This document shows, piece after piece, positions 21,962-26,180 of a stretch of 64,000 bases of DNA (positions are counted from its first letter, which is position 1; each line of letters begins with the position of its first letter). The translations under genes were made by a program, and so were the position numbers. The DNA lies in the NCBI RefSeq assembly GCF_002854065.1, contig NZ_CP024147.1. One strand, 5' to 3'. Source of the DNA: Escherichia coli (GTDB taxonomy: Bacteria > Pseudomonadota > Gammaproteobacteria > Enterobacterales > Enterobacteriaceae). Under the pieces are notes generated by a model, which was given only the letters and a program-made list of their open reading frames with translations, was not told the DNA's origin and made no database searches.

Positions 21962-22214
21962 TTACGATGCCGGGCGTGGGTTGTTGGCGTCCGGCTTTAT
22001 ATCCAAATAACGCTTAGTTATTGATAATTAAGAGTAACTGCCGCCATTAAAATAGTGGGCACTGACGAGCACTCGTTGTGCTTTCTTTGTTTACCATCCC
22101 ATACTTATCCTCCTGAACATGTTCATGTGCCAAAATATCTTCTAATACTTTCGTGACGCTATCCGGTTTATGACATACACTGATGTAAGATTTTTACTTA
22201 CAGGCGGGCGTAAA

Positions 22215-22466
22215 ATGGCCAGAACGATGACGGTTGATCTCGGCGATGAGTTGCGTGAATTTATCGAGTCCTTAATTGAATCCGGCGACTATCGCACCCA
22301 AAGCGAAGTGATCCGTGAGTCACTGCGATTACTTCGAGAAAAGCAAGCAGAGTCTCGCCTGCAAGCGTTACGTGACATGCTCGCAGAAGGGTTGAGTAGT
22401 GGTGAAGCTCAGCCGTGGGAAAAGGACGCGTTCTTACAGAAGGTGAAAGCAGGGATAAGGAAATAA
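22215..22466 (+). CDS. Type II antitoxin, ParD/RHH (CopG-like) family
   Basis: ~83-aa product (MARTMTVDLGDELREFIESLIESGDYRTQSEVIRESLRLLREK...) with a ribbon-helix-helix N-terminus typical of ParD; stop lies 1 nt before the toxin start. Confidence 0.75.
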   Translation: MARTMTVDLGDELREFIESLIESGDYRTQSEVIRESLRLLREKQAESRLQALRDMLAEGLSSGEAQPWEKDAFLQKVKAGIRK

Positions 22467-22467
22467 T

Positions 22468-22764
22468 GTGCGTATTATTAAACTCATGCCAAAAGCCAAT
22501 GAGGATTTAGAAGGCATCTGGTATTACAGCTATCACCATTTCGGCGAACCACAAGCCGACAGATATGTGGAACATCTTTCAGACGTTCTCCAGATTCTGA
22601 GTAACAATAATATAGGTACGCCCAGACCTGAATTAGGCGAAGGTATTTTTGTTCTTCCTTTTGAACGCCACGTCATTTATTTCCTGCAATCACCAGGGGA
22701 AATTATCGTCATTCGTATCCTTAACCAAAACCAGGACGCCACCAGACATTTACACTGGAGCTAA
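22468..22764 (+). CDS. Type II toxin, ParE/RelE superfamily
   Basis: 98-aa product (MRIIKLMPKANEDLEGIWYYSYHHFGEPQADRYVEHL...IIVIRILNQNQDATRHL) with the ParE-like pattern; GTG start translationally coupled to the upstream antitoxin. Confidence 0.75.
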   Translation: MRIIKLMPKANEDLEGIWYYSYHHFGEPQADRYVEHLSDVLQILSNNNIGTPRPELGEGIFVLPFERHVIYFLQSPGEIIVIRILNQNQDATRHLHWS

Positions 22765-22866: not shown

Positions 22867-24228
22867 ATGTTTAAACCGGAACTCCTTTCCCCGGCGGGAA
22901 CGCTGAAAAATATGCGTTACGCTTTCGCTTATGGCGCAGATGCTGTTTATGCGGGCCAGCCGCGTTATTCCCTGCGTGTGCGCAACAACGAATTCAACCA
23001 CGAAAATCTTCAGCTCGGCATCAATGAAGCCCACGCGCTGGGGAAAAAGTTTTATGTCGTGGTCAACATTGCACCGCACAACGCCAAGCTGAAAACCTTT
23101 ATCCGTGACCTGAAACCGGTGGTGGAAATGGGGCCGGATGCGCTGATTATGTCCGATCCAGGGCTGATTATGCTGGTGCGTGAGCACTTCCCTGAAATGC
23201 CGATCCACCTCTCGGTGCAGGCTAACGCCGTAAACTGGGCGACGGTGAAATTCTGGCAGCAAATGGGCCTGACCCGCGTGATCCTCTCTCGCGAGCTGTC
23301 GCTGGAAGAGATTGAAGAGATCCGCAATCAGGTGCCGGATATGGAGATCGAGATCTTCGTTCACGGCGCACTGTGCATGGCCTACTCCGGTCGCTGCCTG
23401 CTCTCTGGCTATATCAACAAGCGCGACCCGAACCAGGGTACCTGCACCAACGCCTGCCGCTGGGAGTACAACGTCCAGGAAGGGAAAGAAGATGACGTTG
23501 GCAACATCGTACACAAGTACGAGCCGATTCCGGTGCAAAATGTTGAGCCGACGCTGGGTATCGGCGCACCAACCGACAAAGTGTTTATGATCGAAGAAGC
23601 CCAGCGTCCGGGCGAGTATATGACCGCGTTTGAAGATGAGCACGGCACTTACATCATGAACTCGAAAGATCTGCGCGCCATCGCCCATGTTGAACGCCTG
23701 ACCAAAATGGGCGTGCATTCGCTGAAAATCGAAGGTCGTACCAAATCTTTCTACTATTGTGCACGCACCGCACAGGTTTACCGCAAAGCTATCGATGACG
23801 CCGCTGCGGGAAAACCGTTCGATACCAGCCTGCTGGAAACTCTGGAAGGTCTGGCGCATCGTGGCTATACCGAAGGTTTCCTGCGTCGTCATACTCACGA
23901 CGATTATCAGAACTACGAATACGGTTATTCAGTTTCTGACCGCCAGCAGTTTGTTGGTGAGTTTACCGGTGAGCGCAAGGGGGACCTCGCGGCGGTAGCG
24001 GTGAAAAATAAATTCTCCGTTGGCGACAGCCTTGAGCTGATGACGCCGCAAGGCAACATTAACTTTACCCTTGAGCACATGGAAAACGCCAAAGGTGAAG
24101 CGATGCCGGTCGCACCAGGCGATGGTTATACTGTGTGGCTCCCGGTCCCGCAGGATCTTGAGCTAAATTACGCTCTCCTGATGCGTAATTTCTCTGGGGA
24201 AACCACGCGTAACCCACACGGTAAGTGA
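22867..24228 (+). CDS. yegQ: U32-family peptidase-like protein YegQ (RlhA; rRNA hydroxylation factor)
   Basis: 453-aa ORF with U32 peptidase family sequence features. Confidence 0.85.
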   Translation: MFKPELLSPAGTLKNMRYAFAYGADAVYAGQPRYSLRVRNNEFNHENLQLGINEAHALGKKFYVVVNIAPHNAKLKTFIRDLKPVVEMGPDALIMSDPGLIMLVREHFPEMPIHLSVQANAVNWATVKFWQQMGLTRVILSRELSLEEIEEIRNQVPDMEIEIFVHGALCMAYSGRCLLSGYINKRDPNQGTCTNACRWEYNVQEGKEDDVGNIVHKYEPIPVQNVEPTLGIGAPTDKVFMIEEAQRPGEYMTAFEDEHGTYIMNSKDLRAIAHVERLTKMGVHSLKIEGRTKSFYYCARTAQVYRKAIDDAAAGKPFDTSLLETLEGLAHRGYTEGFLRRHTHDDYQNYEYGYSVSDRQQFVGEFTGERKGDLAAVAVKNKFSVGDSLELMTPQGNINFTLEHMENAKGEAMPVAPGDGYTVWLPVPQDLELNYALLMRNFSGETTRNPHGK

Positions 24229-24312
24229 TTAATATCGATTATTTTTCCCGGATGGAAAATTCTTAGAAACCGATCACATACAGCTGCATTTATTAAGGTT
24301 ATCATCCGTTTC

Positions 24313-24399
24313 GCTGAAAAACATAACCCATAAAATGCTAGCTGTACCAGGAACCACCTCCTTAGCCTGTGTAATCTCCCTTACACGGGCTTATTTTTT
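24313..24399 (+). ncRNA. cyaR: CyaR (RyeE) Hfq-dependent sRNA
   Basis: 87-nt sequence gctgaaaaacataacccataaaatgctagctgtaccaggaaccacctccttagcctgtgtaatctcccttacacgggcttatttttt matches CyaR as I recall it, including the terminator hairpin and T-run. Confidence 0.85.
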
Positions 24400-24557
24400 A
24401 TGCATAAGCCCTATCCCTGGTCACCGTCTTCCATTGACCACATCGATAGAATCTCCCTTCATAGCACGATGCCTTTCACGTAACGGCATCGTGCTCGCAC
24501 AGGTTCCGGCTAAGCACAACCAGAACGCGCATGTTTGATGCTTACCAAAAAATATTC

Positions 24558-24875
24558 TCACTCTCCACATTTGAATGTCAGACGAGCGACGCCATGTAAT
24601 CCTGCACCTTCTGTCTTCAGGTCAACTATCTGCATTTTTTTGCCCTGAGTAACACAGAAATGGGCTGCATCATTTTTTACTATATTTTCTGCACCAGATA
24701 TTCTGCCCCTGGCTAAAGAAGCTTCGGCTTCGGTGTAGTATTGGTTATCGAGTTTACGCTGAATATTACTTTTATATGCAAGACCAAATTTACCGATACT
24801 TGTTTCATCATTATGCACAGCACAACCAGATATAAGAAAAATACTAATTAATGATATAGCAGCTATCTTTTTCAT
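24558..24875 (-). CDS. yegR: Small lipoprotein (YegR-like)
   Basis: ORF 24558..24935; start at the internal Met (MKKIAAISLISIFLISGC, lipobox) gives ~105 aa. Confidence 0.7.
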   Translation of the reverse strand: MKKIAAISLISIFLISGCAVHNDETSIGKFGLAYKSNIQRKLDNQYYTEAEASLARGRISGAENIVKNDAAHFCVTQGKKMQIVDLKTEGAGLHGVARLTFKCGE

Positions 24876-25280
24876 CTCACCTTCCCCCATTAAATACCAA
24901 CGACACTCTCTAGTGTTTAAATATAATAATGGCATGATTATTATAATTGAATAGGATTATAATAAATGTTCTGTACAACATTTCCTACATAAGTAGGAAT
25001 TACGGACATTGAGGCCCTTCAGGGTAACTCCATGGGGGCTTTAATATATTATATTGAAGATGCCACTGTTTAGTTGAATATTAGGTATATGCTCTTTTTT
25101 GAAATTTATCGGTGGCAGCCGTTAGTATTCGCTGTCCCCATTGCAAGCTCCTGGTGGTAACCACTGAATCTTCCATACTTGAACTGACTTTTTATCCTCC
25201 GACTTTCATCCTGTTCTGACTCCACCTTTTGTTTTCTGCTCTACACTATCTACAGACCAATCATAAAGGCACATACGATC

Positions 25281-26180
25281 ATGGCAGAATTTCCCGCCAG
25301 CTTACTGATTCTTAATGGCAAAAGTACTGACAATCTACCCTTGCGCGAAGCAATTATGCTGTTGCGTGAGGAAGGAATGACGATCCATGTGCGGGTCACC
25401 TGGGAGAAAGGCGATGCCGCACGATATGTAGAGGAGGCCCGGAAGTTGGGTGTCGCAACGGTGATTGCCGGTGGTGGCGATGGCACCATTAATGAAGTTT
25501 CTACGGCGTTGATTCAGTGTGAGGGGGATGGCATACCCGCGCTGGGAATTTTGCCATTAGGAACCGCCAATGATTTTGCCACCAGTGTAGGGATTCCTGA
25601 GGCACTGGATAAGGCGCTGAAACTGGCAATTGCCGGTAACGCCATTGCGATAGATATGGCGCAGGTCAACAAACAAACCTGTTTTATTAATATGGCGACA
25701 GGCGGATTTGGGACGCGTATTACCACAGAAACGCCGGAAAAATTAAAAGCCGCGCTGGGTGGCGTCTCTTACATCATTCATGGCTTAATGCGCATGGATA
25801 CTCTGCAACCGGACCGTTGTGAAATCCGCGGTGAAAACTTTCACTGGCAAGGTGACGCCCTGGTCATTGGTATTGGTAACGGGCGTCAGGCCGGTGGCGG
25901 TCAGCAATTGTGTCCGAACGCATTAATTAACGATGGCTTGCTGCAACTGCGCATTTTTACCGGCGATGAAATTCTTCCGGCTCTCGTATCAACCTTAAAA
26001 TCTGACGAAGATAACCCGAATATTATCGAAGGCGCTTCGTCGTGGTTTGATATACAAGCCCCACACGAAATCACTTTTAATCTTGATGGCGAACCGTTGA
26101 GCGGACAAAACTTTCATATTGAAATACTTCCGGCGGCGTTGCGTTGTCGATTACCACCAGATTGTCCATTATTGCGTTAA
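25281..26180 (+). CDS. yegS: Lipid kinase YegS (DAGK_cat family)
   Basis: 299-aa ORF with a diacylglycerol-kinase catalytic-domain GGDG motif ([13 protein letters not shown]). Confidence 0.85.

Follow-up and report, generated by a model that had tools for sequence, protein, structure and literature searches.

The region described here lies in a stretch of 64,000 nucleotides of Escherichia coli DNA, to which we refer as the window, and it comprises the small RNA gene cyaR, the lipoprotein gene yegR on the opposite strand and, beyond a spacer, yegS. The features of the region and the basis on which each was assigned are given in Table 1. The position first proposed for cyaR agrees with the covariance search, in which Rfam family RF00112 matched 24311..24396 on the plus strand (100.7 bits for a gathering score of 47, E 8.7e-20, model positions 1-85 of 85); when the T-run is included, the full gene measures 87 nt. 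A terminator scan placed a Rho-independent terminator at its 3′ end, where a stem of 11 pairs at 24364-24391 is followed by TATTTTTT. This terminator is polymorphic at position 24387, which is a G in the window, in K-12 and in the P2 attP core and forms a G.U pair with 24368, and which is an A giving a perfect pair in the divergent Escherichia genome L008 and in two further loci (L013 and L023). A CRP-dependent promoter and Hfq-dependent regulation of targets would further be expected of a CyaR gene. The allele at 24387 may allow phage-derived versions of the cyaR terminator to be separated from older ones.

Table 1. Features of the cyaR-yegS region in window coordinates, with strand and the basis of each assignment.
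Feature	Position	Strand	Basis
cyaR (CyaR/RyeE sRNA gene)	24313..24399	+	RF00112, 100.7 bits; terminator scan
P2-type att core AATCTCCCTTACACGGGCTTATTTTTT, 27 bp, 3′ half of the cyaR terminator; current integration site and putative attL of the relic island	24373..24399	+	27/27 with NC_001895
Putative shortened remnant of the P2 IHF-binding region, with a 16-nt gap relative to P2	24400..24418	+	alignment to annotated P2 attP
Putative fossil of the P2 Int P-arm binding region, GGTCACCGTCTTCCATTGACCACATCGA	24419..24446	+	nhmmer, BLAST
Direct repeat of the initial 10 nt of the core, AATCTCCCTT	24450..24459	+	repeat scan
Hairpin: perfect 11-bp inverted repeat, 11-nt loop, single-copy, E. coli-specific	24463..24495	.	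inverted-repeat scan, genome counts
Putative fossil of the right cohesive end (cos) flank, phage 186-type (Eganvirus), profile positions 51-108	24496..24553	+	nhmmer
yegR, 105-aa lipoprotein gene inside the putative relic island	24558..24875	-	translation; RefSeq annotation of identical loci
AT-rich island spacer, GC 0.37, presumably with the yegR promoter	24876..25166	.	composition
Degenerate second att core AATCTTCCATACTTGAACTGACTTTTT, 19/27; putative displaced original cyaR 3′ end (attR relic), right island boundary	25167..25193	+	core match, L131 alignment
Ancestral cyaR-yegS spacer, where homology to island-free enterobacteria restarts	25203..25280	+	L131 alignment
yegS	25281..26180	+	follows spacer

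An alignment with the K-12 junction and with P2 attP had been suggested in the original prediction; it showed that the last 27 nt of cyaR are identical to the attP core annotated in P2 and that the K-12-type remnant is flanked by copies of this core. A P2-like phage integrates here through an Int-mediated exchange inside the 27-bp core and, because attP carries the identical 27 bp, cyaR keeps an intact terminator after integration. Near-contiguous matches across the region were found in 4562 of 5426 complete E. coli genomes, and window positions 24100-24700 are 100% identical to strain SY3626. About 860 genomes are occupied, and among the matches listed the two parts of a split match overlap at 24373..24400, the positions of the breakpoints having been read from a 30-row sample of the matches. 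The core is present at both ends of the prophage in these lysogens, the junctions coincide with it, and P2-type int-C-cox genes (integrase, C repressor and cox) adjoin the right junction (attR) in four of the loci (L003, L004, L007 and L024). We take the cyaR site to be the P2 site 'locI', the preferred one in E. coli C. Barreiro and Haggard-Ljungquist are said to have dealt with P2 locI in E. coli C in 1992. That the cyaR terminator serves as a P2 integration site and is empty in some strains is already published: Archer et al. 2011 (PMC3032704) reported 'cyaR RNA' as a P2-type insertion site that is filled by Wphi2 in strain W, by P2*B in strain B and by ogr-D' in K-12, and that is empty in Crooks.

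In the window yegR, on the minus strand, comes after cyaR without any ogrK or D' fragment, as had been expected from the letters alone, whereas K-12-type loci carry an ogrK and D' insert of 630 bp at the same place, between the full core and an incomplete copy of it beginning at 24382. The K-12 remnant (ogrK-yegZ, or ogr-D') resembles what we describe below in that it is a decayed P2-type prophage in the same core, flanked by one full and one partial copy of it. It differs in being younger, with ogr and its flank 96-100% identical to P2-like phages, and in having kept recognisable phage genes over its 630 bp, which were inserted to the left of the older relic. There is neither a recent prophage nor an ogrK/D' remnant at the core in this genome. 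The idea that the cyaR 3′ region is an unoccupied phage attachment site thus held as far as the perfect P2-type core and the lack of a recent prophage are concerned, but the site is not pristine, since the stretch from 24400 to 25202 is an old insertion.

Between cyaR and yegR the window carries a perfect 11-bp inverted repeat, which had been placed at about 24461..24493; the repeat is indeed perfect, but its true position is 24463-24495, 2 nt further right. The two arms, AGCACGATGCC (24463-24473) and GGCATCGTGCT (24485-24495), make 11 perfect pairs and have their centres 22 bp apart. The computed RNA fold reaches -20.6 kcal/mol on the plus strand and -24.3 kcal/mol on the minus strand, with a z of about -5 relative to shuffled sequences. 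A scan of the 64-kb window for inverted repeats with 11 or more perfect pairs and loops of 3-20 nt recovered two loci, and in Markov simulations 0.38 such repeats were found per 64 kb, 30% of the simulations having at least one. The hairpin is real and uncommon, and it is not statistically compelling by itself. The other of the two loci, at 62126-62159, has 13-bp arms (AATTACGGATGGC) and an 8-nt loop, lies directly after a stop codon and is probably a terminator or a 3′ stem-loop.

Of the 5426 E. coli genomes, 5414 have the segment 24401-24496, with about one copy per genome (5415 records with 5429 places in all), and the hairpin gives one match in the window even when up to 3 mismatches are allowed. 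It is missing in L008, which keeps yegR, and in L124, a metagenome contig from another enterobacterial genus. In L008 the place of the hairpin is taken by about 95 nt of different sequence, among them the cos-proximal hairpin known from 186-type phages, and homology to the window is back at 24496-24497, directly behind the hairpin; L008 is the one genome on which the sister-clade comparison was made, E. albertii, E. fergusonii and E. marmotae being outside the sample. The loop differs among E. coli (ACGTAAC or ACTTATC). B2-type and related haplotypes have variants at 24473 and 24486 that disrupt the two top pairs and are not compensated, and with them the plus-strand stem folds at about -12 kcal/mol instead of about -19. 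In 14 loci taken without selection for the hairpin the lower 9 bp of the stem are constant, where about one change would be predicted from the roughly 5-7% divergence of the spacer. Such constancy could reflect constraint, and we count it as about neutral either way.

The original prediction implied that the hairpin is part of the attachment site, and this did not hold up. The hairpin is located 63 nt beyond the core, it does not occur in the attP arms of the phages, and in lysogens it remains unchanged on the chromosomal flank at attR. A blastn search of INPHARED with the hairpin (E up to 1) returned two records only, both of which include E. coli flank. A pattern scan of IMG/VR returned 94 stretches, of which about 90 come from prophage contigs whose end is E. 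coli flank and four are unrelated hairpins; the retrieval pattern requires the 9 outer bp, so that this set cannot show variation there. The four unrelated hairpins (L030, L099, L100 and L102) have the same nine outer arm bases, AGCACGATGG...CCATCGTGCT, and are flanked by A- and T-runs in the manner of a bidirectional terminator. Their stem top, loop and context differ from those in the window, and we judged the resemblance to be the coincidence of a short palindrome. An origin of the hairpin as a diverged piece of the 186-type cos flank, or as an inverted duplication of it, was tried and is not supported, as deletion of the loop and of either arm raised the profile score only from 16.3 to 17.0 bits and made the alignment no longer.

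It had also been considered that the hairpin might be a known REP element or terminator, and it is neither, being single-copy and without a U-tract. It is similar to intrinsic terminators in that it is a G+C-containing stem-loop located 3′ of a gene and between convergent units, but on neither strand is the stem followed by a U-tract (the plus strand continues with CGCACAGG and the minus strand with ATGAAGGG), its loop of 11 nt exceeds the range that the terminator scan takes (3-8 nt), and the scan made no call. No family was returned by an Rfam scan of the hairpin with E values up to 10. A repeated extragenic element of the REP/BIME kind would typically be found in such a place, an intergenic palindrome between convergent genes, but with one copy in the window and about one place per E. 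coli genome this reading is ruled out by copy number, and we give it a negligible chance. The hairpin is also, as we assume, unlike the REP consensus.

The hairpin could instead be a DNA site, either a palindromic site bound by a protein or the att site of a second integrase or mobile element. Its perfect palindrome with arm centres 22 bp apart and its place within an integration hot-spot region would fit such a role, but the breaks in the 30-row sample fall at the 27-bp core, at 24382 in K-12-type loci and at a 170-bp indel at 24553, and none falls at the hairpin. The sole IS3 insertion seen is at 24453-24456, outside the hairpin; moreover, the latter is single-copy with no second site in the window, and its arms are imperfect in several lineages. 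We regard a DNA site as highly improbable. The IS3 element is that of E. coli 1218KP (L021), where it is inserted in the equivalent of the AATCTCCCTT 10-mer, and this strain also has a P2-like prophage at the core.

A role in RNA was weighed as well: as a 3′ stem-loop the hairpin could terminate or stabilise the convergent yegR mRNA on the minus strand, or it could be a roadblock to read-through between cyaR and yegR. The stability of the stem on both strands, its location 63-95 nt downstream of the yegR stop and between convergent genes, the constancy of the lower 9 bp in the 14 unselected loci while the loop varies, and the retention of the segment in nearly all of the E. coli genomes would all be in keeping with this, and the YegR protein has been detected in proteomes. 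On the other hand, the missing U-tract means that the hairpin is not a canonical intrinsic terminator, no compensatory changes are seen (B2-type and related haplotypes just lose the two top pairs), L008 retains yegR without having the hairpin, and the hairpin matches no Rfam family. We consider such a role unlikely. At most the convergent yegR transcript would fold into a stable stem-loop here, within its 3′ untranslated part, and as far as these comparisons go the hairpin gives no sign of function. Two small ORFs that run across it (67 aa on the plus strand and 49 aa on the minus strand) were dismissed as genes; they have no Pfam match and overlap cyaR or yegR.

The neighbouring gene yegR is patchily distributed and has probably been moved horizontally. 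Its GC content is 0.38, against 0.53 for the window, and the YegR protein of L008 is 91% identical. When yegR was compared by tblastn with 50,697 phage records, no homologue was found except in records with E. coli flank. We therefore rejected yegR as recognisable phage cargo, for it has no phage homologue and its homologues in Klebsiella sp. and Cedecea stand in a non-phage context. A scan of the genome contigs with YegR gave 6 loci, and three lower-identity YegR variants that we looked up turned out to be error-prone E. coli assemblies. Homologues of yegR with 82-84% identity are present in Klebsiella sp. BIGb0407, a Cedecea sp. and an Enterobacteriaceae MAG (L010-L012), in the vicinity of genes for a GNAT acetyltransferase, a nitroreductase and Ivy, and with no cyaR, yegQ or yegS near.

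Just 3′ of the yegR stop, many E. coli (L002 at 1955-2123, L004, L013, L022 and L023) and L008 have about 170 extra nt that the window is without (24553/24554). In L011 and L012 yegR is followed by a second lipoprotein ORF, to which this segment has nucleotide matches of about 30 nt at 84-87%, and these short matches make the segment look like a decayed neighbour gene, which would have been deleted in the window. Upstream of cyaR, between yegP and yegQ, the window carries a parD/parE toxin-antitoxin pair on the plus strand (22170-22466 and 22468-22764; Pfam ParD_antitoxin 4.5e-19 and ParE_toxin 1.8e-13). As only about 147 nt separate yegP from yegQ in the K-12-type locus L001, the pair is another strain-variable insert nearby.

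The extent of the insertion to the right of cyaR was given by a metagenome enterobacterial locus, L131, in which cyaR adjoins yegS directly. Positions 1-429 of L131 correspond to window 23971-24399 and positions 432-1403 to window 25203-26176, and the 803 bp from 24400 to 25202 are missing. Since homology to L131 stops at 24399 and restarts at 25203, the alignment shows this stretch to be an insertion relative to other enterobacteria, and the site is not in an ancestral empty state. A second contig, L129, is consistent with the lack of an insert, its sequence after cyaR having a motif in common with the cyaR-yegS spacer of L131 and the contig ending about 50 nt past cyaR. Other, unrelated inserts of about 0.5-1 kb are found at the same cyaR-yegS point in the metagenome contigs L125-L130. 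Given these unrelated inserts in other enterobacteria, the 3′ end of cyaR is, on the evidence of these alignments, an insertion hot spot well beyond E. coli.

At the right boundary of the insertion there is a degenerate second copy of the core. It is the second-best core match in the 64-kb window on both strands, with a single-position binomial P of about 1e-6 to 2e-5, and it aligns to the 3′ half of the L131 cyaR terminator plus the cyaR-yegS spacer. This second copy is kept in other E. coli at 16-18 of 27 positions. The GC content of the island is 0.40, compared with 0.53 for the window. No recognisable phage protein genes were found in the island, where yegR is the sole gene, and we looked for phage similarity in the yegR-yegS spacer (24876..25166) and found none.

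It might be argued that the site is a pristine empty attB, the right flank with its hairpin and yegR being ordinary ancestral chromosome that was never occupied in this lineage. There are indeed no phage genes between cyaR and yegS, the same layout is shared by most E. coli (the near-contiguous 4562 of 5426), and strains of this kind are scored as empty by Archer et al. (PMC3032704). This explanation seems to us very unlikely, however, in view of the direct junction of cyaR and yegS in L131 and L129, the decayed duplicate of the core at the right boundary, the low GC of the stretch, and the P-arm and cos-flank fossils described below.

Immediately after the core the window has what appears to be a shortened remnant of the P2 IHF-binding region, of which L008 has a less-deleted version that matches P2-like phages. 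Next to it lies a putative fossil of the P arm (GGTCACCGTCTTCCATTGACCACATCGA in the window compared with GGTCACGTCCACACATTGACCACATCGA in P2), which aligns to the attP arm on the ogr side. One arm-type repeat, GACCACA, is intact at 24436-24442 and the other has decayed. When the P2 P arm without the core was used as an nhmmer query, the best match of the 64-kb window was 24407-24458 (E 0.012), in the right place and orientation, and BLAST of the fossil against the K-12 attL arm gave an E value of 4.7e-4. Slightly further on, the 10-mer AATCTCCCTT repeats the beginning of the core; it has only 2 copies in the 64 kb on both strands, in the core and at 24450-24459, against 0.12 expected. The copy at 24450-24459 may be a partial second core copy, left by a second round of integration.

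The hairpin sits exactly between the P-arm fossil and a second putative fossil, that of a cos flank. With a profile built from the right ends of six Eganvirus genomes, nhmmer returned this segment as the top match of the window (E 4.8e-4), and in L008 the top match was far stronger, with E 2.7e-14 over profile positions 2-118. A BLAST search of the L008 spacer against all phage records reached E 1e-3 with the extreme right end of 186, SEN1, PSP3 and others. Both fossils in the window are short and moderately significant (E 0.012 and 4.8e-4 per 64 kb), and their weight would come mainly from their position and from L008 and L124. In the latter contig (MTEY01008772.1; 382-643 and 1389-1460), the core and a P2-like IHF region and P arm, 83% identical over 90 nt, follow that genus's own cyaR and are fused to a 186-like right-end flank; cos and the late genes are missing, and two small ORFs have been inserted. 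The P arm is joined to the cos right flank in all three of E. coli, L008 and L124, the same pattern of collapse.

From the left core, the decayed right core, the P-arm fossil and the cos-flank fossil, we infer that the island goes back to an older prophage of the P2/186 family. We consider it likely that the 803 bp are the relic of such a prophage, once integrated in the same core, and that the hairpin is a neutral by-product of its decay with no role in integration. A P2/186-family prophage would have entered the core long ago and then collapsed to about 0.8 kb, its decay removing the late genes, cos and the early genes. The element would have donated the intact 3′ end at attL, leaving the displaced original cyaR end to decay at attR. 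Given the fossil arm, the cos flank and the decayed second core, the 'empty' site would therefore be the attL of an older relic. Because the 'empty' att site would thus be the edge of an older prophage relic, the present cyaR terminator is probably a copy of the core supplied by a phage, and it has the same G at 24387 as P2.

The remains beside the core might not be inert. The surviving arm repeat and the IHF region could tune the efficiency of P2 integration and excision and so add to the strong preference for this site, the hairpin could insulate cyaR from the yegR transcript, and the joins between P arm and cos could represent a recurrent and specific collapse, for example through cutting at cos in situ with loss of the late-gene side. 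The recurrence of the same join in E. coli, L008 and L124 is the observation that bears on the last of these, and we hold such a scenario to be unlikely. If it were true, the host site, with the surviving arm repeat and the short IHF region (24400-24446), would be similar to one half of an attP.

An inert prophage relic, which is the reading we prefer, can be compared with what is established for the P2 site locI. As at locI, the core shows no difference from P2 attP and overlaps with the cyaR terminator, P2-like prophages occupy the place in many E. coli, ogr-D' is present in K-12, and there is no insert in Crooks or in this strain. In the literature, as far as we found, the flank is treated as plain chromosome, whereas the right flank in the window appears to hold fossil IHF/Int-arm and cos-flank sequences and a decayed second core 0.8 kb away. 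The relic also resembles the decayed islands known at tRNA, tmRNA and sRNA genes (ssrA, rybB and tRNA sites; PMC3032704), attL having the intact, donated 3′ end and attR its decayed duplicate, and with low-GC content that varies between genera at the same point. It differs from them in that almost nothing is left: there is no integrase and there are no phage genes, and what remains would be the arm and cos-flank fossils, one lipoprotein gene and the hairpin.

The new point would be that a classic attachment site, even in the state used as its 'empty' reference, forms the edge of an older prophage that has been almost erased, and the relic island containing yegR would be a new example of a well-known type of genome scar. 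An expressed E. coli lipoprotein gene, yegR, would lie inside such a relic, and in annotation yegR and the cyaR-yegS spacer would be accessory DNA and not core backbone. Experiments on P2 site preference treat this flank as neutral DNA, and their interpretation would be affected. The locus would also provide a clean, small example of how layers of debris build up at attachment sites in sRNA genes.
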